Both the position numbers and the translations under genes were made by a program. DNA of 63,605 nt, taken from the NCBI GenBank assembly GCA_038202855.1, contig JBBREO010000001.1, positions 1 through 63,605 of the forward strand, given 5' to 3'. Every line of letters begins with the position of its first letter. The first letter of the stretch is position 1. Shown piece by piece: positions 2,205 to 59,278 of this stretch. The stretch is from Solirubrobacterales bacterium (GTDB lineage Bacteria > Actinomycetota > Thermoleophilia > Solirubrobacterales > Thermoleophilaceae). Under the pieces are notes generated by a model that worked only from the letters and a program-made list of their open reading frames with translations, made no database searches and was not told where the DNA came from.

Positions 2205-3522
2205 TGGAGGCCGGCCCCGGGAAGGATCTGGCAGGGATGCCAGATCCTTCGAATCCAATCCAGATCGGCATCTGGGACGACGACAAGCCGCCCGAGACGA
2301 CGCTGATCGACGACTGCGTGCACTGCGGCTTCTGCCTGCCCACATGTCCGACCTACCAGCTCTGGGGCGAGGAGGCCGACTCTCCGCGCGGGCGGATCGT
2401 GCTCATGCGCGCCGGCCACGAGGAGGACACCGAGCTGTCGGCCCCGATGGTCAACCACTTCGACAACTGCCTGGGCTGCATGGCCTGCGTGACCGCCTGC
2501 CCGTCGGGAGTGCAGTACGACAAGCTGATCGAGGACACGCGCGCCCAGGTGGAGCGCAAGTGGGAGCGAACGGGCGCAGACAAGTGGACGCGCCGGGTGG
2601 TGTTCGCGCTCGCGCCCCACCCCGAACGGCTGAGGTGGCTGATGCCGCTGATGCGCTTCGGCCACGCCACGCGCCTGGACCGGCTGACCGCGCGACTGCC
2701 GCTGGGACGCCTGTCGGAGGTGGCCAAGCTGGCGCCCGATCCGCCGGTGCGAAAGCACCTGCCCGAGCACGTGCCCGCCGTCGGCGAGTCGCGCGGAACC
2801 GTGGCCGTGCTGCGCGGCTGCGTGCAGCGGGTGATGTTCTCGGGCGTGAACGCCGACACCGCCGCGGTGCTCGCCGCCGAGGGCTGGGACGTGGCCGCCC
2901 CCCACGACCCGCGCTGCTGCGGCGCCCTGCAGCTGCACTCGGGCGCCGGCACCGACGCAAGCGACAACGCGAAGACGACGATCGCGGCGCTGGAGGGCTA
3001 CGAGCGAATCGTGGCCAACGCCGCCGGCTGCGGCTCGGCCATGAAGGACTACGGCCACGTGATGCGCGACGATCCCGACTGGGCCGAGCGCGCCCAGGCC
3101 TTCGCCGACAAGGTCTGCGACGTGACCGAGATCCTGGCCGAGGGCGAGCCGCGCGCGCGGCGCCACCCGGTGGAGATGAAGGTGGCCTATCACGACGCCT
3201 GCCACCTGGCCCACGCACAGGGCGTGCGCCAGCCCCCGCGCGAGCTGCTGCGCGGCATACCCGGCGTGGAGATCATGGAGCCGGCCGACTGGGAGATCTG
3301 CTGCGGCTCGGCCGGGATCTACAACGTGGTCAAGCCCGACGCGGCGGCCGAGCTGGGGCGCATGAAGGCCCAGAACCTCTTGGACACGGGCGCCGAGGCC
3401 GTGGTGGCGGCCAACCCCGGCTGCGCGCTGCAGATAACCGCACACACCCGCGGGTTGGGCAAGGAGCTCCCGGTGATCCACCCGGTCGAGCTGCTGGCCC
3501 GCTCGCTGAGAGGAGCAGGCTG

Positions 3523-3523
<1 letters not shown>
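2204..3523 (+). CDS. glcF: Glycolate oxidase iron-sulfur subunit GlcF
   Basis: Two ferredoxin-type Cys clusters (CVHCGFCLPTCP and CLGCMACVTACP) plus CCG domains (CCGA, CCGSAG). I trimmed the track ORF 1844..3523 to the ATG at 2204, which overlaps the glcE stop. An alternative in-frame ATG lies at 2237. Confidence 0.85.
2221..2250. repeat. 30-bp perfect palindromic element (13-bp stem, GGGA loop) inside the glcF 5' coding region
   Basis: The sequence is GAAGGATCTGGCA-GGGA-TGCCAGATCCTTC. It shares the 12-mer GGCAGGGATGCC with the repeats at 15118..15187 and matches 23/30 positions of the element at 30801..30830. Confidence 0.85.
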
Positions 3524-5142
<1,619 letters not shown>

Positions 5143-6840: not shown

Positions 6841-8502
6841 ATGGCGGCGATGAAGTGGTGGGGCTGGGGACACGAGGAGACCTCCTTCTCCCACGAGGAC
6901 AGGCCCGACCTGGCTCCCTTCATCGCGGACAGGCTCGGGCTGGACGTGACCACGCCGGGCACCGCAGCTCCCGTGCCGCTCGCCGAGCTGGACCTGGCCG
7001 AGCCCGTGCTGCCCTCCGCACTGCGCGACGCGCTGGAGGCCGCCGTAGGGGCCGAGCGGGTGTCCACGGATGCCCTGGACCGCGTCGTCCACGCCCGCGG
7101 CAAGAGCCTGCGCGACCTGGTGCGCCAGCGCCGCGGCGACTTTCCCCGCCTTCCCGACGTCGTCGCGCGCCCCAGCGCCGAGGCCGAGGTGGAGGCGATC
7201 GTGCGCGCCGCGCTCGAAGCCGACGCGGTTGTCATCCCCTTCGGGGGCGGGTCGAGCATCTCGGGCAGCATCGAGCCCCCCGCCACGGAAACGCGCCCGG
7301 TGATCTCGGTCGACCTCGCGCGGCTCGACCGGGTCCTCGAGGTCGACCGCACCTCCCGCCTGGCGCGGGTGCAGGCCGGGGTGTTCGGGCCCGAGCTGGA
7401 GCGCCAGCTCAACGCGCGTGGCTACACCTTCGGCCACTTCCCCGACTCGTTCACCCACTCCACGCTGGGCGGCTGGATCGCCACACGCTCCTCGGGCATG
7501 CAGTCCGACCGCTACGGCGACATCGCCGACCTGACGCGCGGCCTGCGGGTGGTCACGCCGACCGGCGTCCTGGCGGTGCGCCCGGTGCCCAGCACGTCGA
7601 CCGGGCCCAGCGTGCGTGAGATGGTGCTGGGCAGCGAAGGACGGCTGGGCATCATCACCGAGGCCACCGTGCACGTCAGCCGGATCCCGGCGAAGCGGAC
7701 GATCCTGGGGTACCTGTTTCCCACCTGGGGCGAGGGACTGGCCGCCATGCGCGACATCGCCGCCAGCGAGGCCGCGCCGTCGGTGACCCGCGTCTCCGAC
7801 GCCCCCGAGACCCAGTTCTCCTTCGCCACGGGCAAGCATCCGTCGCTGACCGACCGACTGAAGTCAGGCGCGCTGAAGTCCTACCTGCACCGCCGGCGCA
7901 AGTTCGACCTCGACTCGATGTGCCTGTCATTCGTCGGCTACGAGGGCGACGAGGCGAGCGTCGCGACGAACAAGAAGCTGGCGGAGCGGATCGTCAAGAG
8001 CCACGGCGGCCTGGGGATCGGCAGCAGCCCCGGCGAGCTCTACGACCAGAAGAAGTTCGACACCCCCTACATCCGCGACTTCCTGCTCGACCGCGGCGCG
8101 CTGGCCGACGTATCCGAGACCTCGGCGCCGTGGAGCGAGCTGTCGCGCGTCCACGCCGGGGTGACCGCCGCCGCACGCGGCGCCTTCGCGCAACTCGGCG
8201 TGCCGGGCTACCTGATGTGCCACCTGTCGCACTCCTACCACGCCGGCGCCTGCCTCTACTTCACGTTCGCGATCGTGCCGTCGGGCGACCGCGACGAGCT
8301 AGAGGAGTACGGCGTGGTCAAGTCGGCGATCCAGCAGGCGTTCATGGACTGCGGCGCCACCCTGTCGCATCACCACGCGGTCGGGACCGAGCACGCGCGG
8401 TGGCTGGAGCAGGACATATCCGCGCCGGGTGTGCGGATGCTGACGGCCCTCTTCGCGGGCACCGACCCTCACGGGAACCTGAACCCCGGCAAGATCGTCT
8501 AG
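6841..8502 (+). CDS. FAD-linked oxidase of the alkyl-dihydroxyacetonephosphate synthase (AGPS)-like family
   Basis: 553 aa. The N-terminal MKWWGWGHEE resembles the W-x-GWG start typical of AGPS-family proteins. It has an FAD-binding PCMH domain (VIPFGGGSSISG) and a C-terminal HHHAVG motif. I trimmed it from track ORF 6364..8502 to the ATG at 6841. Confidence 0.8.
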   Translation: MAAMKWWGWGHEETSFSHEDRPDLAPFIADRLGLDVTTPGTAAPVPLAELDLAEPVLPSALRDALEAAVGAERVSTDALDRVVHARGKSLRDLVRQRRGDFPRLPDVVARPSAEAEVEAIVRAALEADAVVIPFGGGSSISGSIEPPATETRPVISVDLARLDRVLEVDRTSRLARVQAGVFGPELERQLNARGYTFGHFPDSFTHSTLGGWIATRSSGMQSDRYGDIADLTRGLRVVTPTGVLAVRPVPSTSTGPSVREMVLGSEGRLGIITEATVHVSRIPAKRTILGYLFPTWGEGLAAMRDIAASEAAPSVTRVSDAPETQFSFATGKHPSLTDRLKSGALKSYLHRRRKFDLDSMCLSFVGYEGDEASVATNKKLAERIVKSHGGLGIGSSPGELYDQKKFDTPYIRDFLLDRGALADVSETSAPWSELSRVHAGVTAAARGAFAQLGVPGYLMCHLSHSYHAGACLYFTFAIVPSGDRDELEEYGVVKSAIQQAFMDCGATLSHHHAVGTEHARWLEQDISAPGVRMLTALFAGTDPHGNLNPGKIV

Positions 8503-8560
8503 ACGTAAGCGGAGTTGGTCTCCGCGAAACCGCCGGGGCCCGGCCGGGTAGTGAAGGGTT

Positions 8561-9304
8561 GTGGCCGACCCCGCCGACCTAGACCTCCCCTGGACCCGGT
8601 CGGTTCCGGCCGCCCGGCTGCGCGAGGCCCTGATCTGCGGCGTGCTCGGGCCGCTCATGGACCTCTACACGCGGCGGAGGGTCGTGGGTCGCGATCACCT
8701 CGAGACCCTCCCCGGGCCGGTGCTGTTCGTGGCCAATCACCACTCGCACATGGACACCCCGGCGATCCTGCGGGCGCTGCCCGGGCACTGGCGCAGGCGC
8801 ACGGCAGTGGCCGCTGCCGTGGACTACTTCTTCACCAGCCGGCGCAACGCGGTGTCGACCTCCCTGGCCTTCGGCACGGTGCCCATGGACCGCTCGGGCG
8901 GCGGCCTGGGCCCCGAGGCGACGGCCCACATCGATCGCCTGTTCGCCGGCGGCCACAGCCTGCTCATGTTCGCCGAGGGCACCCGCTCGCACGACGGGTC
9001 GGCTTCGCGGTTGCGCTCGGGTGCGGCCGTGCTGGCGGCCCAGCACGGGCTGCCGATCGTGCCGATCTACGTCGACGGCACCGGCGTCGCGATGCCGCGT
9101 GGCCACCACTGGATGGTCTTCAAGCGCGGCCGGCCGGGGCCCCGCCACCGGATCGAGATCCGCTTCGGCGAGCCGATCGCGCCCACCGAGGCCCAGGCTC
9201 GCGATGAGGTGATGGAGCGCATCCGGCTCTTTTTGACCGCGTGCGGAGCCGACCTCCAGCCCGCGCCCGAGCGCCGGCGCCAGCGCCAGCGCCAGACCGT
9301 CTGA
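8561..9304 (+). CDS. PlsC-family (lysophospholipid/glycerol-phosphate type) acyltransferase
   Basis: It has the HX4D block NHHSHMDTPA and the FAEGTRS block. The start is GTG. Confidence 0.8.
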   Translation: MADPADLDLPWTRSVPAARLREALICGVLGPLMDLYTRRRVVGRDHLETLPGPVLFVANHHSHMDTPAILRALPGHWRRRTAVAAAVDYFFTSRRNAVSTSLAFGTVPMDRSGGGLGPEATAHIDRLFAGGHSLLMFAEGTRSHDGSASRLRSGAAVLAAQHGLPIVPIYVDGTGVAMPRGHHWMVFKRGRPGPRHRIEIRFGEPIAPTEAQARDEVMERIRLFLTACGADLQPAPERRRQRQRQTV

Positions 9305-9305
9305 C

Positions 9306-10322
9306 ATGGGGCGCGTCTTCGTCACCGGCGGCAGTGGGTTCATCGGCGGCGCGCTGATCGACTCGCTGCGCGAGCGCGGCGACGAGGTGTGGGCGCTGGC
9401 CCGCTCGGACGCGGCGGCGCGGAAGGTGAGCGCGCGGGGCGCTCGGGTGGTGCGCGGCCACGTGCTGGAGGAGGACGTGCTGGCGACCGGGATGGGGGGC
9501 TGCGACCTGGCCTTCCACGTGGCGGGAATCAACTCACATTGCCCCGAGGATCCGGAGGCGATGCTGCGGGTGAACGTCGAGGGCGCCGCCGCGGCGGTGC
9601 GCGCGGCCGCCCACGTGGGCGTGCCCCGGCTGGTCTACACCTCGTCGGCCGCATCGGTGGGCGAGGCCGAGGGCACCGTCGGGCGCGAGGACTCGCCCCA
9701 CCGCGGCTCCTACCTGTCGGTATACGACCGCTCCAAGCACGAGGGCGAGCGGGCCGTGTTCGCGGCGGCCGAGGAGCTCGGGATCGAGGTCGTGGCCGTG
9801 AACCCGTCGTCGGTGCAGGGACCCGGGCGCTCGTCGGGCAACGGCAAGATCGCCATCGACTACCTCAACGGCAAGCTGCCGGTGTTCGTGGACACCCACC
9901 TGAGCCTGGTCGACATCGCCGACTGCGTTCGCGGGCACCTGCTCGCCGCCGAGCGCGGGCGGCCCGGTCGGCGCTACCTGCTCAACGGGGCCACGATCAC
10001 CTCGCAGGAGGCGCTGGACATCGTCTCCGGCCTGTCCGGGGTCCGCGAGCGGGTGCGGATCCTGCCCGCGCCGGTGGCTCGCAGCGCCGCCGCGGTGGTG
10101 GAGAGCGCGTACAAGGTGCGCGGGCGCACGCCGTCGCTGTGCCGGGCCCGGGTGCGCACGATCCTGCACGGCCATCGCTACGACGGCACGCTCGCCTGCC
10201 GCGAGCTCGGCCTGCGGTACACCTCCGTCGAGGACACCTTCGCCCGCGTGATCGACTGGGCCCAGGACGAGGGACTGGTCGCACGGCCGCCCGGGGGCGC
10301 GGGTGACCGACTGCCTGCTTAG
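9306..10322 (+). CDS. NAD(P)-dependent epimerase/dehydratase-family (extended SDR) reductase
   Basis: It has the Rossmann motif VTGGSGFIGG and the catalytic YDRSK (YxxxK). It starts 2 nt after the acyltransferase stop. Confidence 0.8.
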   Translation: MGRVFVTGGSGFIGGALIDSLRERGDEVWALARSDAAARKVSARGARVVRGHVLEEDVLATGMGGCDLAFHVAGINSHCPEDPEAMLRVNVEGAAAAVRAAAHVGVPRLVYTSSAASVGEAEGTVGREDSPHRGSYLSVYDRSKHEGERAVFAAAEELGIEVVAVNPSSVQGPGRSSGNGKIAIDYLNGKLPVFVDTHLSLVDIADCVRGHLLAAERGRPGRRYLLNGATITSQEALDIVSGLSGVRERVRILPAPVARSAAAVVESAYKVRGRTPSLCRARVRTILHGHRYDGTLACRELGLRYTSVEDTFARVIDWAQDEGLVARPPGGAGDRLPA

Positions 10323-10978: not shown

Positions 10979-13150
10979 CTACTGGGGATCTACGTCCACG
11001 GCCACGGCCACGCCCTGCTTGGCCAGCTGGGGTGCCATCGCCTCCACCGCCTCGCGGACCGCCGCGATCCCCGACTCGCGCTCGGGCCCGCGGACCACCA
11101 GCTGGGCCCGGTCCTTGCCCTGACGCCGAAACAGCGCGACAGGCCCCAGCACGCTGGAGCCCGGCGGATGCAGGCGATCGGCCAGGGCCTGCGCGGCATC
11201 GTGCTCGGGCCCGGGCTCCGGAGACGAGCACACGACCCGGACCAGGTGCCCGTGGGGCGGGTAGCCAAGCGCCGCCCGGCGCCCGAGCTCGCCGCGCAGG
11301 AAGCCGACCGAGTCGTGGTGTGCGGCGTACTTCAGCGCCCGCGCGCCGGGATCCAGGGCCTGCACCACCACTCGCCCCTCCCGGCCGCCGCGGCCGCTGC
11401 GTCCTGCGAGCTGGGCCACCAGGGCGAACGTGCGCTCCTCGGCGCGAAAGTCGGGAAAGCGCAGCGTGGCGTCCGCGTCGAGCACCACGCCGAGGGTCAC
11501 GTCGGCGAAGTCGTGGCCCTTGGCCACCATCTGGGTGCCCACCAGCACCCCGGAGTCGGAGGCCTCGAAGCGCTCCAGGGTGGCGGCCACGCCCTCGCCG
11601 GCGACGGTGTCGGCGTCCAGGCGGAACACCGGCAGCGGCGCCACCAGCCGCTCCAGCTCGGCCCCGAGCTGCTCGGTGCCCATCCCGTGTCGCTTGACCG
11701 TGACCGACTGGCAGTCAGGGCAGGAGTCGGGAACGCGCTCGGAGTGGCCGCAGTGGTGGCAGGAGACCCGTCCGGCCCCGCGATGGAGGACCAGCGTCAC
11801 GTCGCACTCCGGGCACTCCCACACGCGCCCGCACTCGGCGCAGGTGAGGAAGTTCGACCAGCCGCGGCGGTTCAGGAGCACCATCGCCTTCTCCCCCCGC
11901 TCGGCCACGCCGGCCAGCGCCTCGGCCGTGCGCGGGTGCAGCGCGCCCCTCACCCCGGCCATTCCCACCAGCTCCACGGGCGGCAGCGGACTGCCGTCCA
12001 CGCGCTGGGAGAGCTCCAGGCGGCGGTAGCGCTCGGCGCTCTCGGGGCGGGGCGTGGCGCTGCCGGCCAGGAGCACGGCTCCGGCGGTGGCGGCGCGGCG
12101 CTCGGCCACGTGGCGGGCGTCGTAGCGGGGATCGCCGTCCTGCTTGTAGGAGCCGTCGTGCTCCTCGTCGACCACCAGCAGCCCGACGTCGGACAGCGGC
12201 GCGAACACGGCCGAGCGCGGGCCCACGCACACCTTGGCGGCGCCCGAGCGCAGGCGCGCCCACTCGTCGTAGCGCTCGCGCGCGGTCAGCTGGGAATGGA
12301 GGATGGCCACCGTGTCCCCGAAGCGGCGGACGAAGCGCCCAGCCGTCTGGGGCGTGAGGGCGATCTCGGGTACGAGCACGATCGCCGTCTTGCCGCGCTC
12401 CAGCGCCGCGGCCACGGCGCGCAGGTAGACCTCGGTCTTGCCGCTGCCCGTCACACCGTGCAGCAGCAGCCGGCGATCGCTCCGGGCCGGGGCGTCCATG
12501 GCTCCGACCACCTCTTCCAGCGCGGCCGCCTGCTCCCCGGTCAGGGCCCCGATCTCCGGACACGCCCCCACCACCGAGGTGCGGGGACGCTGGGGAGCCT
12601 GGTCGGCCCACTCCAGCGCGATCAGCCCACGCGCCTCGAGCCGGCGCGCCCCGGCGTGGTCGCAACCCGTGCCCGCGACCAGATCGCTTACCCGCGCGGG
12701 GGCCTCGGCGAGGGCGGCGAGCGCCGCCTGCTGGCGCGATCCGAGCCGCTCGGCCCCCTCCAGGGCCGCGCGCCCGGAGTCGGTGAGCGATGCGCGCAGC
12801 GAGCGCCGCGGCCCCGTGCGCCGGCCGCTGCCCGTTCCGGTGCCCGGCGGGAGCACCAGGGCGAGGCCGCGGGCCGGAGTGGACACGTACTCCCGGGCGA
12901 CCCACAGCCCCAGGTTCACCAAATCGGCCGGAACGTCGGCCTCGAGCGCCGACAGCGGCTCGGCCAGCTTCTCGGGCGCCACCTCACTCTCCTCGGCCAC
13001 CCCCACCACCACGCCGAGGATGCGCCGGTTGGCGAAGGGCACCATCAGCATCGAGCCCACCCCCACGCCGTCCAGGCCGGCCCCGAGCAGGTAGTCGAAC
13101 GGGCCGCGTAGCGCGCGGGCCGTGGTCAGGGGCTCGACCTTGGCGATCAC
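10979..13150 (-). CDS. priA: Primosomal protein N' (replication restart helicase PriA)
   Basis: It has Walker A GVTGSGKTEVY, a DEEHD box and the Cys-rich zinc region CAECGRVWECPECD...CHHCGH...CPDCQS. I trimmed it to the GTG at 13150 (VIAKVEPLT...). The 155 codons upstream in the track ORF are Arg/Pro/Ala noise. Confidence 0.9.
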   Translation of the reverse strand: MIAKVEPLTTARALRGPFDYLLGAGLDGVGVGSMLMVPFANRRILGVVVGVAEESEVAPEKLAEPLSALEADVPADLVNLGLWVAREYVSTPARGLALVLPPGTGTGSGRRTGPRRSLRASLTDSGRAALEGAERLGSRQQAALAALAEAPARVSDLVAGTGCDHAGARRLEARGLIALEWADQAPQRPRTSVVGACPEIGALTGEQAAALEEVVGAMDAPARSDRRLLLHGVTGSGKTEVYLRAVAAALERGKTAIVLVPEIALTPQTAGRFVRRFGDTVAILHSQLTARERYDEWARLRSGAAKVCVGPRSAVFAPLSDVGLLVVDEEHDGSYKQDGDPRYDARHVAERRAATAGAVLLAGSATPRPESAERYRRLELSQRVDGSPLPPVELVGMAGVRGALHPRTAEALAGVAERGEKAMVLLNRRGWSNFLTCAECGRVWECPECDVTLVLHRGAGRVSCHHCGHSERVPDSCPDCQSVTVKRHGMGTEQLGAELERLVAPLPVFRLDADTVAGEGVAATLERFEASDSGVLVGTQMVAKGHDFADVTLGVVLDADATLRFPDFRAEERTFALVAQLAGRSGRGGREGRVVVQALDPGARALKYAAHHDSVGFLRGELGRRAALGYPPHGHLVRVVCSSPEPGPEHDAAQALADRLHPPGSSVLGPVALFRRQGKDRAQLVVRGPERESGIAAVREAVEAMAPQLAKQGVAVAVDVDPQ

Positions 13151-40532: not shown

Positions 40533-41669
40533 CTATTCCTTCGATGTTCTCGGTGCGGTGCTCGGCCGATCGACGATCGGCCTGTGCTCCTCCCGCTTAT
40601 AAAGGGGCTTGGCGCGCACCTCGGCGGCACGCGCCCTTCCACGTACGTCGACCTCGATCTTCGTGCCCGGCTCCGCGGACTCCTCGGGCACGTAGCCCAT
40701 CCCGATCCCGTAGCCCAGGCACGGCGACATGGTCCCGCTGGTCACCACGCCCTCCCCGGCGTCCGAGTGGATCGTGTTGCCCTGACGCGGTATTCCCGGG
40801 CCCGTGAAGGCGAACGGCACCAGCTTGCCGCCCGTGTCGACGCCACGCAGGGCGTCGGAGCCGATGAAGCCGGTGTCGAGCTTCACCGCCCAGCCCAACC
40901 CGGCCTCGAGCGGGTTGTGGTCGAGGGTGAGGTCGTTGCCGTAGAGGTGGAAGCACACTTCGGTGCGCAGCGTGTCGCGCGCCGCCAGTCCGGCGGGTAC
41001 CACGCCCTCGTCGAGCAGCGCGTCCCAGATCGCCGGCGCCGCGCTGGGGGGCATCAGCAGCTCCACGCCGTCCTCGCCGGTGTAGCCCGTTCCACAGGCC
41101 AGCACCTGCGAGCCGGCCACGCCCACCGTGGCGGTGCGCATCCGGGCCGGCAGCTCGCCGCGGGTCAGCCGGGCCACGATCTCGCGCGCCTCGGGACCCT
41201 GGACGGCCAGCATCGCGTACTTCTCGGCGGCGTCGGAGACGGTCACGTCGAAGTCACCGGCGTGACCGGCGAACCAGGCGTAGTCGCTCTCGTGGTTCGA
41301 CGCGTTGGTCACCGTCAGGAAGCGCTCCCGGTCTCCGAAGCGCAGCCGGTAGGTGAACAGGTCGTCGATCACGCCGCCGTCCTCGCGACAGAGCACGGAG
41401 TACTGCGCTCCGCCATCGGCCAGCGTGGTCAGGTCGTTGGACAACAGGTGCTGGAGGAAGGCCTCGGCATCGGGGCCCTCGGTCTCGATCTCGCCCATGT
41501 GGGAGACGTCGAAGACCCCGGCGCCCTGCCGGACGGCCAGGTGCTCCTGGCGCACGCCTTCGTACTGCACGGGCATCTCCCAGCCCGCGAAGGGGACGAG
41601 CTTGGCGCCGGCCGCCTCGTGGCGGCCATAGAGCGACGTACGCCGCAGGGTGTCCAGGGCTTCGGACAA
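40533..41669 (-). CDS. gcvT: Glycine cleavage system aminomethyltransferase T
   Basis: It has [10 protein letters not shown] and FDVSHMGE blocks. The start is uncertain because there is no ATG, and I chose TTG at 41669. The C-terminus is extended by the repeat element at 40546..40594. Confidence 0.85.
40546..40594 (-). repeat. Family-1 palindrome-containing element, copy C (in the gcvT 3' end, 20 nt upstream of the gcvH start)
   Basis: The minus-strand sense reads GGGAGGAGCACAG-GCCGATCGTCGATCGGC-CGAGCACCGCACCGAGAAC. The central palindrome resembles copy B. It is read in a different frame from copy B. Confidence 0.75.
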
Positions 41670-41746
41670 GGACGGGAGGTTACCGGCGGGATCGCGTTCG
41701 CCGTGCGTCCATCCCGCCCTGGCTCTGCAGTGCGCGCAGGTTTGGG

Positions 41747-42085
41747 CTAGGAGTCCGCGACAGCCGGCTCGTCGCCCTGAGCTCGGAGCGCCAGGGCGCT
41801 CAGGAAGGCGCCGGTGAGTGCCGCGACAGTGACCGCCACGCCCCCGTACGGCGAGACTTCCCGGCGGCGTGCGGCCCGCAGGCCGGCGACCGTGTCGAGG
41901 ACATCGCACCCGAGGCCGCCGCGGACCCAGCGCTGCTGGGCATCCCCGTCGCTGGTGAGCGTGCCCCATCCGAGGGCCGCGTCACGCGCGGCGAACAGCC
42001 GCCCCATGTACGGCAACTGCGGGTTGCCGTCGATGTCCAGGCCGAAGAGGCGGCACACCCGTCGCGGCGCGAGCCATGCCGACAC
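41747..42085 (-). CDS. Hypothetical small protein with a hydrophobic C-terminal segment
   Basis: 112 aa. The composition is plausible, and it occupies the gap between ftsZ and the gcv operon. I recognised no motif. Confidence 0.4.
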   Translation of the reverse strand: MSAWLAPRRVCRLFGLDIDGNPQLPYMGRLFAARDAALGWGTLTSDGDAQQRWVRGGLGCDVLDTVAGLRAARRREVSPYGGVAVTVAALTGAFLSALALRAQGDEPAVADS

Positions 42086-43424: not shown

Positions 43425-44384
43425 TCATGGTTGCGTCTGGGAGGTCGGCGGCTGGGTCGCTGGGGCCGGACTTGCGGCCGGCGGCGACGCGGCCGATGGC
43501 GTCGTCGCCGGCGGGGTCACAGGCTGCGCGCCCTGCACCGGATCCTGGCTGGAACCCGCGGGGGCGACGGGCTGCATCGTCTGCACGGGCAGGCCGCCCG
43601 CGGCCGGGCGGCCGGGCAGCCGCACGTCTATGTAGTCCGCACCCGCGGCGTCGCGATCGGCGAGCACGCGGGTGACCGCGGCCCACTTCTCCCCGAGGCG
43701 GGTGGCGGGGCCGAACTCCAGCAGCGGTCCGTCGGTCACCTGCACGACCCAGCCCTTCCCTGGCCGGCGGGCGACGTTCTCGAGCTTCCCGGTCAGCGCG
43801 GCGGGCGCTCCGCCGGCCACGCGGACGGCGTCAAGCGTGCCGCTGGGGGTGAGCCGCTTGGCCGGTAGGGCACCGGCCTTGACCTTCACCTCGGGCAGCG
43901 ACCCCCGCAGCGGGAGGCCGGTGAGCACCGACCCGTCGCCGGCCACGGGTATCCGCCGCGCGCCCACCACGAGCATGGCCGCGGGCCGCTGCTCGGTCAC
44001 GAGGATCCGCATGCCGGACGGGAACTCGGTCTGCACGCGCACCGACCGGATCGTCGGGAAGCGGTCGGTGGCCGCACCGATGGCGCCGTGGTCCACGTGG
44101 AGGGTGGTCGAGTCGCGCGCAGCGTGCTCGAGCGCGGCGGTGGCGCGGGCGCCATCCCGACCGCCGCTCAGCCCCGTGACGGCCACCCGGTCGACCGCGA
44201 ACACCCCGAGGTCGCGCAGGACGAGCATGTAGGCCGCGAACAGGATTCCGGCCACCACCGCCAGGACGACCGCGCGCCGGCGCAGGTGGCGGGGCACGGC
44301 GAGCACCAGGTGGCCGGGCAGGCGCAGCGCGCGGGCCGGGGAGACGCCCCCGAGGCGGCGGACGGCGGCCAGGGCCGCGCTCAC
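43425..44384 (-). CDS. ftsQ: Cell division protein FtsQ/DivIB with a Pro/Thr/Ala-rich C-terminal tail
   Basis: It has a single TM segment, a POTRA-like region (FAVDRVAVTGL) and a PT-rich tail. The GTG at 44384 overlaps the murB stop. I trimmed it from track ORF 43425..45023. Confidence 0.8.
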   Translation of the reverse strand: MSAALAAVRRLGGVSPARALRLPGHLVLAVPRHLRRRAVVLAVVAGILFAAYMLVLRDLGVFAVDRVAVTGLSGGRDGARATAALEHAARDSTTLHVDHGAIGAATDRFPTIRSVRVQTEFPSGMRILVTEQRPAAMLVVGARRIPVAGDGSVLTGLPLRGSLPEVKVKAGALPAKRLTPSGTLDAVRVAGGAPAALTGKLENVARRPGKGWVVQVTDGPLLEFGPATRLGEKWAAVTRVLADRDAAGADYIDVRLPGRPAAGGLPVQTMQPVAPAGSSQDPVQGAQPVTPPATTPSAASPPAASPAPATQPPTSQTQP

Positions 44385-45289
44385 GCCTGGGCCTCGCCAG
44401 GGTCGACGTCGCCGAGCGTCTGCACCTCGGCCTCGAGCTCGATGCCGAAGCGCTCCTGCACCCGGCGACGGGCCTCGTTCATGAGGGCCACCACGTCGGC
44501 GGTGGTCGCCTCGCCGGCGTTCTCCACGAAGTTGGCGTGCACCAGGGACAGGCGCGCGCCGCCCACCTCCAGGCCTCGACAGCCCGCCTCGTCGAGCAGA
44601 ACGCCGGCGGTGCGGCCCTCGGCGCGGGGGTCGTCGGGGTTCTTGAACGTGCTGCCGAAGGTCTTGATGCCCGCGGGCTGGGCGGCGCGACGCTTTCCGC
44701 GCTTGTCGGCCAGGGTGGCCTTGACGGCGGCCGGGTCGGCGGGCTCGAGCAGGAAGGAGGCCCGCGCCACCACCTCGCGCGGGCCGAGGTTCGAGCGCCG
44801 GTAGGAGAAGGCGAAGTCCGCCGGGACGCGGCGGTCCGTGCCCGCCGGTGTGGCCACATCGGCCCACTCCAGGGCCCGCGACAGGTCGCCGCCGTAGGCG
44901 TTGGCGTTCATCTTCACGGCCCCGCCCACCGTCCCGGGGATGTTCACGCCGAACTCCAGGCCGGTCAGGCCCTCGCGGGCGGCGCGGGCGGAGACCGAGG
45001 GCAGCCGGGCGCCCCCGCCGCACAGCAGCCGGGGGCCGTCGCGCTCGGCCTGGGCGAGCGGACCGTCGAGCTTCATGGCGAGTCCGCGAAAGCCGGCATC
45101 AGCTACGAGCAGATTCGAGCCCGATCCGATCACTCCTACCTGCAGATCCTCCGACTCGGCCCAGCGCAGCAGCTCCACCAGGCGCTCCTCGCCGTCGGGC
45201 CGGGCGTAATAGTCAGCCGGACCGCCGGTGCGCACGGTGGTCAGCCGCGCGAGCGGGAAGTCCCGCTGGACGCCGTCGGGGATCGTCAC
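44381..45289 (-). CDS. murB: UDP-N-acetylenolpyruvoylglucosamine reductase
   Basis: It has an FAD-binding domain (GSGSNLLV) and a C-terminal MurB domain (AGSTFKNP-like GSTFKNP). Confidence 0.9.
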   Translation of the reverse strand: MTIPDGVQRDFPLARLTTVRTGGPADYYARPDGEERLVELLRWAESEDLQVGVIGSGSNLLVADAGFRGLAMKLDGPLAQAERDGPRLLCGGGARLPSVSARAAREGLTGLEFGVNIPGTVGGAVKMNANAYGGDLSRALEWADVATPAGTDRRVPADFAFSYRRSNLGPREVVARASFLLEPADPAAVKATLADKRGKRRAAQPAGIKTFGSTFKNPDDPRAEGRTAGVLLDEAGCRGLEVGGARLSLVHANFVENAGEATTADVVALMNEARRRVQERFGIELEAEVQTLGDVDPGEAQA

Positions 45290-46608
45290 GTGAGCTCCCG
45301 GGCCAGGCCGTCGACGTCCCCCGCCCCCAGGGTGAGCAGCACGTCACCGTCGCCGAGCTCGGCGCCTAGCCGCTCGGCGGCCTCCGCCAGCGTCGGGGTC
45401 CACATCACCCGGCGCCCGCCCGCGGCATCGGCTGCCGCCTGGGCCACGAGCAGGCCCGACACCCCGGGGAAGTCCTCGGGCCGCTCGCGGGCCGGGTAGA
45501 CGTCCACGACCACGACCACGTCGGCGACGGCCAGAGCGCGGCCAAAGCCGCGGGCCAGCTCCTTGGTCCGCGAGTAGAGGTGGGGCTGGAAGCAGGCGAC
45601 CAGGCGGTGTGCGCCCAGCGTGCGGGCCGCCTCCAGCGTGGCCCGCACCTCGGTTGGATGGTGGGCGTAGTCGTCGAACACCCGCGCGCCGGTCACGGTG
45701 TGGCCGTGCTCCTCGAAGCGCCGGCCGGTCCCCGTGTATCCCGCCAGGGCGGGCGCGGCCTCCTCGAGCGCCACGCCCGCCTCGCGGCAGGCGGCCAGGG
45801 CAGCGAGGGCGTTGGCCACGTTGTGGCGCCCCGGCACCGACAGCTCGACGTCGACCCCCTCCACGGAGAAGCGGGCACCCAGCGGCCGCAGCTCCACTTC
45901 CTCGGCGGTCAGGTCCTCGCCGTCGAACCCGTAGGTCAGCGCGGCGGCGATCTGGGCGCCGGGCCCGGCGATCCGCACCTGCGCCGGGGCCACGAACTCC
46001 TCGAACGCGGTGCGAAGCTCGCCCAGGGAGGCGTAGGTGTGGTGGTGGTCGAGCTCGACGTTGGTGACCACGGCCACGTCGCGCTCCAACTCGAGGAAGG
46101 AGCCGTCGGACTCGTCGGCCTCCACCACGATCCACTCCCCCTCCCCCCAGGCGGCGTTGGTGCCGCGCGAGCGCAGCTCGCCGCCGATCACGAACGCCGG
46201 CTCGCGGCCACACTCGCCCAGTGCGTGGGCGATCATCCCGCAGGTGGTGGTCTTGCCGTGGGTGCCGGCCACGGCGATCGATCGCTTGAGGCCCGACAGC
46301 TCGCCCAGCAGCCGTCCGCGATGCAGCACCGTCGCTCCGGCGTCGCGGGCGGCGGCCAGCTCCGGGTTGTCCTCGGGGATGGCGGTGGAGACGATTACCT
46401 CGGCGCCGGCGGGCAGGTTGGCGGCGTCGTGGCCGATCGCCGGCTCGATGCCGGCGGCCCGCAGGCGGGCCGTGTAGGAGGACTCGGCGCGGTCCGAGCC
46501 TGTGACCGTCGCGCCGAGCTGGGCGCACACCAGCGCCAGGCCGCTCATGCCTGCCCCGCCGATACCCACGAAGTGCAGGCGGCGATCGCTGAGGGGCCGA
46601 GCGCTCAT
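45286..46608 (-). CDS. murC: UDP-N-acetylmuramate--L-alanine ligase
   Basis: It has HFVGIGGAGMSGLA, the GTHGKTTT P-loop and the Mur ligase C-terminal domain. Confidence 0.95.
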   Translation of the reverse strand: MSARPLSDRRLHFVGIGGAGMSGLALVCAQLGATVTGSDRAESSYTARLRAAGIEPAIGHDAANLPAGAEVIVSTAIPEDNPELAAARDAGATVLHRGRLLGELSGLKRSIAVAGTHGKTTTCGMIAHALGECGREPAFVIGGELRSRGTNAAWGEGEWIVVEADESDGSFLELERDVAVVTNVELDHHHTYASLGELRTAFEEFVAPAQVRIAGPGAQIAAALTYGFDGEDLTAEEVELRPLGARFSVEGVDVELSVPGRHNVANALAALAACREAGVALEEAAPALAGYTGTGRRFEEHGHTVTGARVFDDYAHHPTEVRATLEAARTLGAHRLVACFQPHLYSRTKELARGFGRALAVADVVVVVDVYPARERPEDFPGVSGLLVAQAAADAAGGRRVMWTPTLAEAAERLGAELGDGDVLLTLGAGDVDGLARELT

Positions 46609-46681
46609 CCTGGGGGCAGATTACGGTCGCGGGGCGACGATGTGAGGGCGCACGCCGAGCTTTTCGCCATCATGGGCTGTT

Positions 46682-47845
46682 GTGGCCCGTATGCCTGCAC
46701 GTCTCACCCTGCTCCTGATCGCCCTGACGGCGACGGTCCTGCTTGCCCTGCCAGGGGTGGCACTGGCCGACAGCTTCGACCCAGATCCCGGCTCGATCCT
46801 CGCCCCAAGTGCCCCAAGCCCGCCGCCGTCGATCCCCAATCAGAGCCAGGAGGGCGACACCCTCGACGGGTACGAGGGAGCATGGGATTCGGGAACCATC
46901 CTCACCTACAAATGGCTCCGATGCGAGAGCGACAAGTCAACATGCGTCGCCACGGGCGACACAGACCTGAGCTACACGCTCGCGTCCGCAGATGTGGGCA
47001 AAATCGTGAAGCTCCGGGTGACGGGCACCAACGGCTTGGACTCCCGCCAAGCCGACTCGAACGAGATCGGCCCCATCGTCCAAGCCCCGGTCCCGCCATC
47101 GCCGCCCACCGCGCCTCCCTCGATCACGGGGACTGCGCAGGAGAACGAAGTGCTGACCGGCGACCGGGGCGCGTGGGACGCGACCGCCGTCTCCTTCACC
47201 TACGAGTGGTTCCGGTGTGACCTCGCCACCTGTGAGACCACCGGCGACACCGATCTGAGCCACACGCTCACCGCCGACGACGTGGGCAAGACCATCAAGC
47301 TGCGGGTGACCGGTCGGAGTGCCACAAACGGCACAACCGAAGCCGACTCGGACAGCTTCGGCCCCATCGCCCCAGCCCCTCCAGGCCCCACGCCGACACC
47401 GACTCCCGCGACCAGCCCGCCGGCAAGCACCGGACCGCCGGCCACGACGAGCCCGCCCCCCGCGAAACAGTCAAAGCCCGCTCCGACGCTCAAGCGGCTG
47501 TCGCCCTTCCCCCTGCTGGTGATCGGCGGCCGGGTGTCGGGCTCGGTGACCGTCTTCTCCAGCGTCAGCCTCAACCGGATGCCCCGCGGAGCCACCGTCC
47601 GGATCAGCTGCACCGGCCGCAGCTGCCCCTTCGCGCGGTCGGCCACCACCCTGCGCAAGGGCTCGAAGATGACGCTCGTGAGCCTGCAGCGCAGCCTGAG
47701 CGCCGGAACGGTGATCACCATCACCGTGCGCAAGGGCAAGACGCTTGGCAAGTACACGCGGCTGCGGATCCGTCGCGGCACCGCCCCCGCCCGGGTCGAC
47801 CGCTGCGTGCGTCCGGGCTCGTCGAAGCCGGTGGCCTGCAAGTGA
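46682..47845 (+). CDS. Secreted protein: signal peptide, two approx. 85-aa Ig-like repeats, a PT-rich linker and a conserved Cys-containing basic C-terminal domain
   Basis: The signal peptide is LLLIALTATVLLALPGVALA. The repeats carry G-x-W...Y-x-W-x-RC...C...TGDTDL-x-YTL...DVGK-x-I-KLRVTG (about 46820..47071 and 47090..47341). The C-terminal domain begins LSPFPLLVIGGR and ends DRCVRPGSSKPVAC. Many A/T-ending codons are visible. Confidence 0.75.
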   Translation: MARMPARLTLLLIALTATVLLALPGVALADSFDPDPGSILAPSAPSPPPSIPNQSQEGDTLDGYEGAWDSGTILTYKWLRCESDKSTCVATGDTDLSYTLASADVGKIVKLRVTGTNGLDSRQADSNEIGPIVQAPVPPSPPTAPPSITGTAQENEVLTGDRGAWDATAVSFTYEWFRCDLATCETTGDTDLSHTLTADDVGKTIKLRVTGRSATNGTTEADSDSFGPIAPAPPGPTPTPTPATSPPASTGPPATTSPPPAKQSKPAPTLKRLSPFPLLVIGGRVSGSVTVFSSVSLNRMPRGATVRISCTGRSCPFARSATTLRKGSKMTLVSLQRSLSAGTVITITVRKGKTLGKYTRLRIRRGTAPARVDRCVRPGSSKPVACK

Positions 47846-48615
47846 AGGCGCGACGCCGGTCCTTCGTCGCGGTCGCCGGGATGGCCCTCTTGGCCGCGTT
47901 CGGCGCCTCCGACGCCCGCGCCGCGGGCGAGCCGGTCAACCGCCAGCCGCCCACGCTCAGCCAGTCCGGGACGACGCTGTCGACCACCGACGGCACCTGG
48001 GTGGGCGTCACGCGGCCCTTCTCCTACTCGTGGTTTCGCTGCGCCGACGCCAGCGTGGACAGCTGCCTGCAGGTGCCGGGACAGACCTCCAACACGTACG
48101 CCATCACCGGCCTGGACGCCGGCAACCGGATCCGCTCGCGGGTGACCGGCTCCAACCCCTTCGGCTCGACCAGCGCCTTCTCCGCCCCCACCGCCGCCTT
48201 CCCGGTCGCCGCGCCGGGTCCCGTACGCCCCACGGATCCAAGCACCCCCAGGGCGCCCGCCTCGCTTCCGCGCCTGTCGCCCTTCCCAGTGGTGGTGATC
48301 ACCGGCCGCACCCGCGGCGCGCACACGCGCATCACCGGGCTGCTGGTTCGCGGCCCGGCGGGGGCCAAGGTCGCCACGACTTGCAAGCTCCGCTGCCACG
48401 TGCGCGCACGGTCGACCACGATCGGCTCCACGCGGCGGGTGCGCCTGCACCGCGCCGAGCGGCTCTACCGCGCCGGGGCCGTGCTGGAGTTGCGCGTGAC
48501 CGGCCGCGGCCGGGTGGGCAAGTACACCCGGCTTCGCATCCGGGACGGGCTGGCGCCGGCGCGGATGGACCGCTGCCTGCGACCGGGCTCGACCGCGCCC
48601 GTGCGCTGCTCCTAG
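47842..48615 (+). CDS. Secreted paralogue: signal peptide, one Ig-like repeat, a Pro-rich linker and the same C-terminal domain
   Basis: The GTG start overlaps the previous stop (GTGA). It shares the motifs YSWFRC, LSPFPVVVITGR, GKYTRLRIR and DRCLRPGSTAPVRC with the preceding gene. Confidence 0.75.
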   Translation: MKARRRSFVAVAGMALLAAFGASDARAAGEPVNRQPPTLSQSGTTLSTTDGTWVGVTRPFSYSWFRCADASVDSCLQVPGQTSNTYAITGLDAGNRIRSRVTGSNPFGSTSAFSAPTAAFPVAAPGPVRPTDPSTPRAPASLPRLSPFPVVVITGRTRGAHTRITGLLVRGPAGAKVATTCKLRCHVRARSTTIGSTRRVRLHRAERLYRAGAVLELRVTGRGRVGKYTRLRIRDGLAPARMDRCLRPGSTAPVRCS

Positions 48616-49688
48616 CGCTCCGCCGCCAGCTCCAGTAGCTCGTCGGCCACCCGACGGGCCGCGTCCGGGCGCGCCGCGTCGGCCGCCGCACGGCCCATGG
48701 CCGCCATGCGATCGGGGGCGCCCAGCAGGGCCGCCACCTCGCGGGCCAGCCGGGGACCGTCGAGCTCGGCGTCGAGCACCACCACGGCCGCGCCGGCCCG
48801 CTCCATGTGGCGCGCGTTGAGCGTCTGGTGGTCGGCGCTGGCGTGCGGGTAGGGCACGAGGATCGACGGCAGCCCCGCTGCGGCCACCTCCAGGACCGAT
48901 CCCCCCGAGCGGGCCACCACCAGGTCGGCCGCGGCCAGCGCATCGGCAAACGGATCGATGTAATCGTGCAGGTGGTAGTGGGGCGGCGAGCCGAGCGCGG
49001 CCAGGCGCGCGGCCAGCTCCGCGTGGTCGCGGCGCCCGCTCGCGTGCAGCACGACGAACGGCGCATCCGCCCCGAATGCCTCGACCGCCGCGTCGTTGAC
49101 CCGCCTGGCGCCCAGCGATCCGCCGAACACCAGCACGCAGCGCTCCTCGGCGCCGATCCCGAACCGCTCGCGGGCGCCGGCCCGATCGGCGTGACCGGTC
49201 ACCGCGGGACTGGGCCGACCGATGACCTCGTAGCGCTCCCCCCCTCGTCCCTCGATCGGGAAGGCGAGGAAGACCCGTCGAGCGAAGCGCGCCAGCAGCC
49301 GGTTGGTGATGCCCAGGTGGCTGTCGGCCTCGGTGGCGACCACCGGAAGTCCCAGCGACCGGGCCGCGACCCCCACCGGGGCCGCCACGTAGCCGCCCCC
49401 GCCCATCACCGCGTCGGCGCCCAGCTCGCGCAGCAGCCGGCGCGCGCGTACGGTCGCGGTGGCGGCCAGCCCCACCGCGCGGGCGGCGCGCAGGGGGTTG
49501 CGGCGGTCGATGCCCGCCACGCGCAGCTCGTGGAACGGGTAGCCCGCGGCGGGGACCAGCTCGGCCTCGGCCCGCTCGCCGCCCGCGAACTCGACTCGGG
49601 CGCCGCTAGCCCGCAGCTCGGCCGCGACGGCCAGTGCCGGCACCACGTGCCCGGCCGTCCCGCCGGCCGCGATCACGATCGTCGGCAC
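48612..49688 (-). CDS. murG: UDP-GlcNAc:lipid I GlcNAc transferase
   Basis: It has an N-terminal AAGGTAGHVVPALAV motif and a GT28 C-terminal domain. The start is GTG. Confidence 0.92.
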   Translation of the reverse strand: MPTIVIAAGGTAGHVVPALAVAAELRASGARVEFAGGERAEAELVPAAGYPFHELRVAGIDRRNPLRAARAVGLAATATVRARRLLRELGADAVMGGGGYVAAPVGVAARSLGLPVVATEADSHLGITNRLLARFARRVFLAFPIEGRGGERYEVIGRPSPAVTGHADRAGARERFGIGAEERCVLVFGGSLGARRVNDAAVEAFGADAPFVVLHASGRRDHAELAARLAALGSPPHYHLHDYIDPFADALAAADLVVARSGGSVLEVAAAGLPSILVPYPHASADHQTLNARHMERAGAAVVVLDAELDGPRLAREVAALLGAPDRMAAMGRAAADAARPDAARRVADELLELAAER

Positions 49689-57668: not shown

Positions 57669-58325
57669 CTAGCGGACCACCTGCTGGCCCGCCGGCGCGG
57701 CCGCGGCGCCGGGTGGGGTAGTCGTCGGCGCCGGGGTGGCGGCCGGAGCCTGCGGGGGCGTCGCAGCCTGGGGTGTGGTGGCCGTGGGAGCGGGCTGGGC
57801 GGCGACGGGCGCGGTCTGCGGCGTGGTGGTCGGCGCGCTCACCTGCGGGCTGGCTCCCTGACCGACCGGGGGTGTCGCCTCGGGGGTGGCGGTCGACGGG
57901 CCGGCCTGGAGGCGCTTCAAGGCGCCGGCGGCGTCGGCGCGGCCGTGGGTCTTGAGGTAGCGGACCTCGCCCGGGGCGGGCAGCACGAGGCCGCTCTGGG
58001 CGGCCACCTTCTGGATCCGCTCGCTCGAGCCCAGCCGGGCGAGGTCGCCGCGCAGACGGGCGTTCTGGCGCTTGACCGTCTCCGACTTCTCGGCGGTGAC
58101 CGCGATGTCGCGGTTCATCCGCAGCAGGTCGACGTTGAAGAACACGATCCCCACGAGCAGCAGGAACACCAGGCCGATCCAGAGCCGCCCGGACAGCAGC
58201 CGGTCGAGCAGGATCGCGCCCCGGGGGCGCACGGGGGCACGGGCGGGCGCGGTCCGCCGGCGGGGCGGTGCGACGGGACGGGCGGGCCTCGCGGGCGCGT
58301 GGCGACGGAGGGGAGCGGCCGACAT
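57669..58325 (-). CDS. ftsL: FtsL/DivIC-type septation protein with a long Pro/Thr/Ala-rich C-terminal tail
   Basis: It has a single TM segment (LWIGLVFLLLVGIVFF) followed by a coiled-coil and occupies the canonical position between rsmH and ftsI. The ATG at 58325 overlaps the rsmH stop. Confidence 0.7.
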   Translation of the reverse strand: MSAAPLRRHAPARPARPVAPPRRRTAPARAPVRPRGAILLDRLLSGRLWIGLVFLLLVGIVFFNVDLLRMNRDIAVTAEKSETVKRQNARLRGDLARLGSSERIQKVAAQSGLVLPAPGEVRYLKTHGRADAAGALKRLQAGPSTATPEATPPVGQGASPQVSAPTTTPQTAPVAAQPAPTATTPQAATPPQAPAATPAPTTTPPGAAAAPAGQQVVR

Positions 58326-59278
58326 CAGGCCTGGCCCCCGGCGATGCGGCGGGCGGCGCGCAGGCGGGCGGAGCTGGCGCGCGGGTTGTCGCCCACCTCG
58401 CCCGGACTCGGGACGACGCCGCCGCGCGGGATCAGCTCCGCCTCCGGCGTGCGCCCGCAGGCGCACACGGGCAGGTCGGGCGGGCAGATGCACCCGAGCG
58501 CACGGTCGGCCAGGAAGCGCTTCACGCGTCGGTCCTCGAGCGAGTGGAAGGAGATGGCGGCAAGGCGACCGTCCTTGGCGAGCAGCGACCAGGCCTCGGG
58601 CAGGGCCCGCTCCAGGTCGCCGAGCTCATCATTCACGAGGATCCGGATGGCCTGGAATACGCGCTTTGCAGGGGAACTCCCTCCGAAGCGGCGCCGCACG
58701 GCGGCGGGCAGCGCCGCCTCGACGGCGGCAACGAGCTCGCCGGTGGTCTCGATCGGGGCGCGCTGGCGGCGCCGCGCGATCTCCCGCGCGATGATGCGCG
58801 CGTTGCGCTCCTCGCCGTAGGTCGAGAGCACCTTGGCCAGCTGGCGCTCCTCCATGGTGTTGACCACCTCGCGCGCGTCCAGCTCCTGTCCGGGGTCCAT
58901 GCGCATGTCCAGCGGCGCGTCGAAGGAGTAGGAGAAGCCGCGCTCGCGGGCGTCGATCTGCATCGAGGAGACGCCGAGGTCGAAGTAGACGAGGTCGCCG
59001 CGAAAGCCTTCCTCCTCCAGAAGCGCAAGGGCGTCCGCGTAGTCCATGCGCAGGAAGCGGGTCTCGCAGGAGACCTCGGCGGCCATCTCCTCGAAGCGCT
59101 CCTCGGCGGCGGGGTCGCGATCGATGCACACCAGCGTGCCGGTGGGTCCGATCCGGTCGGCCATCAGTCGCGCGTGGCCGCCAGCGCCGAAGGTGCAGTC
59201 GACCACGTTGTCTCCGTCACCCGGCTGGGTCAGGTCGATCAGCTCGCCGGCGAGGACGGGTACGTGGGAGCGCGTCAT
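58325..59278 (-). CDS. rsmH: 16S rRNA (cytosine1402-N4)-methyltransferase
   Basis: It has HVPVL, DCTFGAGGH, DLGVSS and SFHSLEDR. I chose the ATG at 59278, 1 nt after the mraZ stop. Confidence 0.93.
   Translation of the reverse strand: MTRSHVPVLAGELIDLTQPGDGDNVVDCTFGAGGHARLMADRIGPTGTLVCIDRDPAAEERFEEMAAEVSCETRFLRMDYADALALLEEEGFRGDLVYFDLGVSSMQIDARERGFSYSFDAPLDMRMDPGQELDAREVVNTMEERQLAKVLSTYGEERNARIIAREIARRRQRAPIETTGELVAAVEAALPAAVRRRFGGSSPAKRVFQAIRILVNDELGDLERALPEAWSLLAKDGRLAAISFHSLEDRRVKRFLADRALGCICPPDLPVCACGRTPEAELIPRGGVVPSPGEVGDNPRASSARLRAARRIAGGQA

Follow-up and report, generated by a model that had tools for sequence, protein, structure and literature searches.

An opposite-strand pair of predicted secreted Ig-repeat genes with an unannotated C-terminal domain interrupts the dcw cluster in a Thermoleophilia clade

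The dcw cluster, which groups genes for cell division and for the cell wall, ranks among the best-conserved gene orders of bacteria, and lineage-specific accessory genes are known within it, such as the sporulation and ylx genes in the cluster of Bacillus. Fragmented dcw clusters keep 'ftsW, murG' and 'murC, ddl, ftsQ, ftsA, ftsZ' as separate blocks (PMC9395523). Here, we describe an insert at this natural murG|murC seam in the genome of a Solirubrobacterales bacterium, based on the analysis of 63,605 nucleotides of its assembly (GenBank GCA_038202855.1, contig JBBREO010000001.1, positions 1 to 63,605), in the following termed the window. The canonical co-directional dcw gene order is kept in the window, whereas the murG–murC adjacency is broken by a 2.0-kb insert of two opposite-strand genes, termed gene A and gene B, both encoding predicted surface proteins that end in a shared basic C-terminal domain (CTD). 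As in the accessory-gene clusters, non-universal genes occupy a conserved slot, and as in the fragmented ones (PMC9395523), the break falls between 'ftsW, murG' and 'murC...ftsZ'. Unlike in those clusters, the added genes lie on the opposite strand and encode predicted secreted Ig-repeat proteins, and the cluster remains physically contiguous but appears to be split transcriptionally, with a new putative promoter of the leaderless type in front of murC. A literature search on the dcw clusters or surface proteins of Thermoleophilia yielded nothing relevant. Accessory dcw genes are already known, as are anchor-like modules at the C-terminus of Ig-repeat surface proteins and leaderless promoters in actinobacteria; new are the large unannotated domain family and a dcw cluster that is split, in a stably inherited manner, by opposite-strand genes. 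With a probability of roughly 0.55, we read genes A and B as encoding envelope-retained surface proteins that form a clade-specific, vertically inherited addition to the dcw cluster and are transcribed divergently from murC-murB-ftsQ-ftsZ.

The insert is bounded by tight junctions (Table 1). Gene A and gene B are encoded on the plus strand between murC and murG, both on the minus strand. murC and gene A are divergent and separated by a gap of 73 nt, the GTG start of gene B overlaps the TGA stop of gene A (aaGTGAagg), and the TAG stop of gene B (48613–48615) overlaps the stop codon of murG (CTA, 48612–48614; cTAg). Pfam assignments on the minus strand yielded the order rsmH, an unassigned open reading frame (ORF) at the ftsL position, ftsI, murE, murF, mraY, murD, ftsW and murG, and beyond the insert the order continues with murC, murB, ftsQ and ftsZ, followed by gcvT. 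The ORFs and the three junctions are all as described in the initial annotation of this DNA, and the otherwise canonical minus-strand dcw cluster that it had recognized holds from rsmH to ftsZ.

To delineate the distribution of the insert, we mapped MurC, MurG and a hidden Markov model (HMM) of the CTD onto related loci (L001 and following) and sampled further murC contexts. Homologs about 40% identical to gene A were found on the opposite strand of the murC/murG slot in three long contigs, in 1, 2 or 3 copies. CTD genes lie in this slot, again on the opposite strand, in L001, L002, L004–L015, L018, L023, L025, L030 and L031; overall, some 20 independent Thermoleophilaceae/Solirubrobacterales genomes, with MurC proteins 70–86% identical to that of the window, have 1–3 of these genes at this junction, always in the orientation seen in the window. 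The closest relatives, L030 (MurC 85%) and L031 (81%), have the same pair, and L030 has both 4-nt overlaps too. Five further loci (L027, L028, L029, L032 and L033; MurC 68–75%) exhibit the canonical 4-nt overlap of murG and murC with nothing between the two genes. These insert-free genomes form one clade in trees of the flanking dcw proteins, recovered in 174/200 bootstraps when rooted with E. coli. A single gain or a single loss would explain this distribution, and a gain appears more parsimonious because overlapping murG and murC genes are the general state, although the rooting is weak. Comparison thus strongly supports that the pair was added to the dcw cluster specifically in one clade, a group of Thermoleophilaceae/Solirubrobacterales, and is inherited vertically there. 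The pair is hence present across the whole clade, but a known annotated function was not found for it, every named homolog being labelled 'hypothetical' or 'PKD repeat protein'.

In four of the insert-bearing loci (L004, L010, L011 and L014) the slot also contains genes for a small membrane protein and for a transmembrane Ser/Thr kinase. The longer insert of this subclade comprises two CTD genes, followed by the small membrane protein (MTAR...PFF[DE]) and then by the kinase. The ORFs concerned lie at 7842–9380 (+) in L010, 7458–9305 (+) in L014 and 11244–12203 (+) in L004, with small ORFs near ~7480–7797 in L010 and ~7130–7461 in L014. The Pkinase match has an E-value of 1e-14 in L014 and is weaker in L010, and the extracellular domain of the kinase, which the third gene of L004 has as well, gave no Pfam match.

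The initial annotation had pointed to a lower GC content in the 5' part of the insert as a hint at separate ancestry. The dip is real, as the segment 46620–47400 has a GC content of 0.671 compared to the window mean of 0.729 and falls within the lowest 2% of 700-nt windows, but it is modest and local. The GC content at third codon positions (GC3) is 0.80 for the first and 0.87 for the second repeat of gene A, versus 0.92–0.95 for the neighboring genes, the gene A CTD and gene B. The dip is limited to the gene A repeats, partly arises from their amino-acid composition (low GC1), and is weaker in the orthologs with an N-terminal GC3 of 0.86–0.91. Its position is that of the segment evolving fastest within the locus: comparing the window with L030, murC and murG each exhibit 85% amino-acid identity and a dN/dS of 0.17, gene B 74% and 0.32, and gene A 43% and 0.64, with 41% identity for its repeats and 59% for its CTD. 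Furthermore, the two gene A repeats are 53% identical to each other in the window but only 27–31% in the closest orthologs, and the second repeat of the window matches the first repeat of the orthologs better than their second one. This pattern indicates a recent internal duplication or conversion by which a repeat of the first type took the place of the second one, and fast, remodelling evolution of an exposed domain would explain the composition better than a foreign origin. A horizontally inserted island of recently acquired DNA, marked by its GC content in the lowest 2% and a first-repeat GC3 of 0.80, is highly improbable and already contradicted. The insert occupies the same position and orientation in ~20 genomes, with the insert-free ones forming one clade, and a single event accounts for this distribution; gene B and both CTDs have a native GC3 of 0.94–0.96, and the dip itself coincides with the lineage-specific repeat replacement and the fast evolution of gene A. 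Mobile-element signatures point the same way: no integrase and no terminal inverted or direct repeats were detected at the insert besides repeats deriving from the paralogy of its genes, a tRNA scan gave nothing relevant, and neither did Rfam searches at the gathering threshold over the whole window and at permissive settings over the insert.

Genes A and B are real genes, based on their coding GC3 signature (0.86 and 0.95 in frame, respectively), their conserved protein family, purifying selection and confident structure models. The insert also contains long ORFs antisense to these genes, which were discarded as the usual high-GC artefacts. The two proteins are paralogs (38% identity, E = 2e-35), and the layout proposed at the outset, consisting of a signal peptide, repeats, a Pro/Thr linker and a shared basic CTD, is as stated, with the motifs listed then corresponding to invariant columns of the family alignments. 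The repeat is about 90 residues long and present twice in gene A (~52–53% identity, E = 3e-26) and once in gene B, where the single copy is matched by the first and second gene A repeats at E = 4e-12 and 5e-11. Scanning both proteins against Pfam and NCBIfam returned the A9 Ig domain only: gene A matches the AIR9 A9 Ig-like family PF23197 over two stretches with 32.5 bits versus a gathering cut-off of 27.5 bits (E = 8e-8), and the gene B repeat has no direct Pfam match, being recognized only by its similarity to the gene A repeats. The AlphaFold model of full-length gene A (predicted local distance difference test score, pLDDT, of 87.9) consists of a signal-peptide helix, two β-sandwiches, a disordered Pro/Thr linker and a third β-sandwich. 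A Foldseek search with this model retrieved only generic matches to FN3/Ig domains in tandem, as in titin and the contactins (E = 1e-7). The likeness to the AIR9 A9 repeat therefore rests on gene A repeats scoring above the Pfam threshold and on a model aligning to tandem FN3 arrays; what differs is that the gene B repeat is seen only via gene A and that the structural matches are generic and functionally uninformative.

Signal peptides were judged from sequence features, namely a charged amino-terminus, a hydrophobic core and an AxA cleavage site. An amino-terminal hydrophobic segment was found in 41 and an AxA site in 46 of the 49 family members, and the sequences display the positive amino-terminus, hydrophobic core and AxA site expected for Sec export. 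The lipobox [LVI][ASTVI][GAS]C is absent from both proteins, a lipobox-like string in 3/49 members being not conserved. Likewise, the Tat motif S/T-R-R-x-F-L-K is not conserved, with an RRxFL-like string in only 5/49 members; gene B contains RRRSFV, which its L030 and L031 orthologs lack. As for sortase signals, none of the 49 members has a hydrophobic carboxy-terminal segment, and no conserved LPXTG was observed, only one internal chance LAVTG. The predicted secretion of both proteins is thus borne out, and comparison strongly supports their assignment as Sec-exported, non-lipidated proteins of a beads-on-a-string build.

The CTD comprises ~115 residues with four invariant cysteines, and the family alignment exhibits as invariant positions PFP, a glycine, C-x(3-4)-C-P, GKY-R, P-x-R-x-D-x-C and a terminal cysteine. 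The domain is strongly basic, with an isoelectric point of 12.0 and a net charge of +22 in both gene A and gene B and of +22 to +32 in every ortholog examined. The AlphaFold2 model of the gene A CTD is an all-β sandwich with a pLDDT of 93.8 and a predicted template-modelling score of 0.85, and the gene B CTD is nearer to other gene B CTDs than to those of gene A. We obtained no Pfam or NCBIfam match for the CTD at E ≤ 1, only chance matches to PDB sequences with its profile (E ≥ 0.2), and no Foldseek match with its model at E ≤ 1e-3, the best one having E = 0.02 and a TM score of 0.3–0.4 to generic FN3 domains. Comparisons to SLH, LysM, GW/SH3b, CW_binding, PG_binding, SPOR, PASTA and the CTD of the type IX secretion system (T9SS) yielded no family-HMM or close structural match. 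Profile and structure searches, as suggested initially, hence assign the repeat to the A9 Ig-like type and leave the CTD without known relatives.

A search of 1.84 billion cluster representatives with the CTD profile retrieved 4,878 clusters (E ≤ 1e-3), of which 617 reach E ≤ 1e-30, with matched proteins of 124–2,107 residues. In 315 of 317 members examined the CTD lies within 10 residues of the carboxy-terminus, and six of the 317 contain 2–3 tandem copies. The modules preceding it in ten large members scanned are Big_13, PKD, TIG, I-set or A9 repeats, and no enzyme domains were found in these ten. Taxa named for the homologs are only Thermoleophilaceae and Actinomycetota. All 21 matches among 185,579 species-representative genomes are metagenome-assembled genomes, either of Thermoleophilaceae, Solirubrobacterales or Solirubrobacteraceae or labelled only as Actinomycetes or Actinomycetota, in a search with narrow patterns that does not thereby exclude other taxa. 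Outside the dcw cluster, further CTD genes encode different N-terminal modules (L016, L017, L019, L020, L022, L024 and L026). Their neighbors vary, with a GT4 glycosyltransferase and a DegT-type aminotransferase among them and a sortase at one locus, and no recurrent partner enzyme was seen among those examined. The sortase case is L020, a single instance in which a sortase gene (2933–3739, +) lies directly upstream of a PKD-CTD gene (3820–4806, +) whose product has no LPXTG. Comparison strongly supports the CTD as a modular end-piece common to thousands of Ig/PKD/TIG-repeat proteins of this lineage, and, judged by its sequence, it is a large and new unannotated family, undescribed in the domain libraries used.

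Gram-positive bacteria possess several non-covalent C-terminal wall anchors, among them the GW modules of Listeria, SLH domains, the basic wall-binding regions of Lactobacillus S-layer proteins and CWB2. The CTD resembles these anchors in being modular, carboxy-terminal, strongly basic and sometimes tandem, and in following predicted Sec-exported Ig-like passengers. Unlike them, it lacks sequence or close structural similarity to the group, its fold being a four-cysteine β-sandwich compared to the SH3-like GW module and the helical SLH domain, and for the CTD binding itself is a prediction. Because the CTD is highly charged, terminal, modular, at times tandem and linked to Ig-repeat passengers, we infer that it may bind an anionic component of the wall and so keep these proteins non-covalently on the envelope, with the Ig repeats displayed outward.

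A different function for the CTD would be that of a sorting or secretion signal for a dedicated export or attachment machine, similar to T9SS CTDs or sortase signals, rather than wall binding. The T9SS CTD of Bacteroidota is likewise a β-sandwich of ~100 residues at the extreme carboxy-terminus of diverse PKD/Ig-repeat proteins, matching the ~115-residue β-sandwich found here after PKD, Ig and TIG cargo and within 10 residues of the end in nearly all members. The very strong conservation of the PFP, GKYTR and DRC motifs, suggestive of a specific protein partner, and the one non-dcw CTD gene directly downstream of a sortase gene fit this explanation as well. However, amino-terminal Sec signals are already present, and no Pfam or NCBIfam model of a known sorting domain matches. 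The host is an actinobacterium and monoderm, and neither an associated machinery nor a recurring partner gene was seen near the CTD genes examined. The tandem copies in six members are what one typically sees in binding modules rather than in signals that are cleaved off, and LPXTG and a hydrophobic tail are both missing. We therefore regard a sorting function as distinctly unlikely.

We analyzed the murC/gene A intergenic region for signs of transcription initiation. In all 16 insert-bearing loci tested, exactly one TANNNT hexamer is present within the 60 nt upstream of murC, at 6–9 nt from the start codon, whereas none of the five insert-free loci has one there. The background frequency of TANNNT in the window is 0.0002 per position, and the spacing of 6–9 nt allows a leader of 0–3 nt. 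In Mycobacterium tuberculosis, TANNNT is the dominant −10 motif, centered 7–12 bp upstream of mapped starts, and leaderless transcripts are common (PMC3898074). The murC geometry is consistent with these mapped actinobacterial promoters, sharing a TANNNT a few bases before the start codon and the lack of a Shine–Dalgarno sequence and of a −35 consensus; the M. tuberculosis promoters were mapped by transcription start sites, whereas the murC promoter is predicted from conservation over 16 loci. Since the hexamer occurs in all insert-bearing loci tested and in none without the insert, murC appears to have gained its own promoter. The cluster would accordingly run as two units, rsmH...murG and murC-murB-ftsQ-ftsZ, the latter leaderless or nearly so, which supports the split of dcw transcription that had been suggested for this locus.

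Upstream of gene A, the element TTTCG[CG]CATCAT followed by 7–11 nt and the start codon is conserved in the window, L030, L006, L007, L008, L031, L005 and L009; another subclade has TACCCT at this place, in some cases with an AAGGAGG leader. The divergent control region between murC and gene A is compact (50–110 nt), with transcription of the pair leading away from murC. For the putative leaderless start of gene A, the hexamer conserved in front of it and the spacing in the orthologs favor the GTG at 46682 over the ATG at 46691. The database gene call for gene A (P0001, 384 residues) starts at the ATG. A scan for E. coli-type promoters and terminators returned nothing, such models being uninformative in an actinobacterium of 73% GC. 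At the convergent junction of gene B and murG, there is no room for a terminator and no terminator-like structure (folding z = +0.4), and the two transcripts likely have overlapping 3' ends.

In the proposed mechanism, the CTD would hold the A and B proteins on the envelope via an anionic wall component, with the variable Ig repeats facing outward, and the control region common to the pair and murC would tie their expression to wall synthesis and division. Positional conservation would in part reflect entrenchment, as the essential murC–ftsZ unit would depend on a promoter adjoining the insert. A direct role of A and B in division is possible, and the kinase and small membrane protein in the same slot of one subclade may be cited toward it. 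Because the pair is absent in sister genomes and gene A evolves fast, we favor an environment-facing surface function over a division role. A bolder version, in which the CTD would be a new Thermoleophilia-specific wall-binding module and A and B an envelope or septum component coupled by a bidirectional leaderless promoter to murC-murB-ftsQ-ftsZ, with the Ser/Thr kinase joining in the subclade, is tentative and, in our estimate, rather unlikely.

Several observations weigh against envelope-retained proteins linked to the dcw cluster. With 43% identity compared to 85% for MurC, gene A resembles a surface protein exposed to the environment more than it does a division factor. Known wall-binding modules show no detectable similarity to the CTD, whose strictly terminal position would fit a sorting signal as well. 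As the insert-free sister genomes manage without it at this site, the pair does not belong to the core components of division. As to gain versus loss, insert-bearing genomes are monophyletic in only 101/200 bootstraps with a very distant outgroup (E. coli). The hexamer upstream of gene A, CATCAT, is not a canonical TANNNT, and all genomes compared are metagenome-assembled.

Some of these points would equally suit an insert that is no more than an entrenched passenger, with A and B being ordinary fast-evolving surface proteins without a link to wall or division that landed once at the murG|murC seam and kept their position only since the dcw cluster is rearrangement-intolerant and murC–ftsZ depends on a promoter beside the insert. 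The sister genomes without the pair at this site, a gene A dN about five times that of murC, a copy number varying from 1 to 3, CTD proteins at unrelated sites in seven loci and the putative murC promoter directly adjoining the insert all agree with such a history. However, the pair is kept down to ~70% MurC identity under purifying selection, especially gene B (74%, dN/dS 0.32), and in a subclade a transmembrane Ser/Thr kinase was recruited to the slot, suggesting a functional neighborhood. This alternative concerns function only and is compatible with all findings on the anatomy of the locus; we consider it a serious possibility, although somewhat unlikely, and retain envelope-held surface proteins as our preferred reading.

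Table 1. Coordinates of the murG–murC insert, its components and its flanking genes in the window.
Feature	Coordinates	Strand	Description
murC	45286..46608	-	ORF; homologs annotated UDP-N-acetylmuramate--L-alanine ligase, Mur_ligase Pfam domains; opens the downstream dcw unit murC-murB-ftsQ-ftsZ
TAATCT (TANNNT −10-like hexamer)	46618..46623	-	9 nt upstream of the murC ATG; proposed murC promoter, function predicted
TTTCGCCATCAT	46662..46673	+	conserved; lies 8 nt upstream of the GTG that starts gene A; proposed as −10 region for a promoter of genes A and B, function predicted
Gene A (387 aa)	46682..47845	+	signal peptide followed by two A9-type Ig-like repeats, a Pro/Thr linker and the basic CTD
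Gene A Sec-type signal peptide (aa 1–29)	46682..46768	+	predicted cleavage after A-L-A; helix 7–20 in the model
Gene A Ig-like repeat 1 (aa ~45–135)	46814..47086	+	PF23197 IG_AIR9 match; β-sandwich in the model; lowest GC3 (0.80)
Gene A Ig-like repeat 2 (aa ~136–228)	47087..47365	+	copy of the type-1 repeat in this lineage
Gene A Pro/Thr/Ser-rich disordered linker (aa ~229–265)	47366..47476	+	pLDDT 54–67
Gene A CTD (aa 266–387)	47477..47842	+	basic β-sandwich, four Cys, motif PFP...C-x4-C-P...GKYTR...P-x-R-x-D-x-C...C
Gene B (257 aa)	47842..48615	+	signal peptide, one Ig-like repeat, short linker, CTD
Gene B CTD (aa 139–257)	48256..48612	+	126 bits versus the CTD HMM
murG	48612..49688	-	last gene of the upstream dcw unit

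The surrounding cluster exhibits further features. The ORF at the expected ftsL position between rsmH and ftsI (window 57669–58493, −) has no Pfam match and, with 274 residues, is far longer than a typical FtsL, so its start may be over-called. In the window and all related loci, murB (window 44381–45289, −) is located between murC and ftsQ, and ddl and ftsA are both missing between murC and ftsZ. Directly after ftsZ, the co-directional genes gcvT-gcvH-gcvP follow in the window (40533–41969, −) and in every related locus, this ftsZ–gcv linkage being kept across the whole group with the insert present or not. Three of the five insert-free loci have another opposite-strand gene directly after ftsZ (L027 10593–11615, L029 10583–11635 and L033 10557–11579, all −), encoding a secreted protein of 340–350 residues with a basic, cysteine-containing carboxy-terminal region and no Pfam match. 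It was considered as a relocated member of the family and rejected, as it gave no match to the CTD HMM.

Within so conserved an arrangement, an opposite-strand insertion that forces the essential murC–ftsZ half onto a new promoter would represent a natural experiment in the tolerance of the cluster, followed by entrenchment. The Thermoleophilia are abundant and poorly cultured soil actinobacteria whose cell surface is essentially unstudied, and the unannotated CTD family of ~4,900 clusters caps their Ig/PKD/TIG surface proteins. If the CTD is indeed a wall anchor, it would help to annotate the surface proteins of these bacteria across the proteome and could serve in display and labelling tools.

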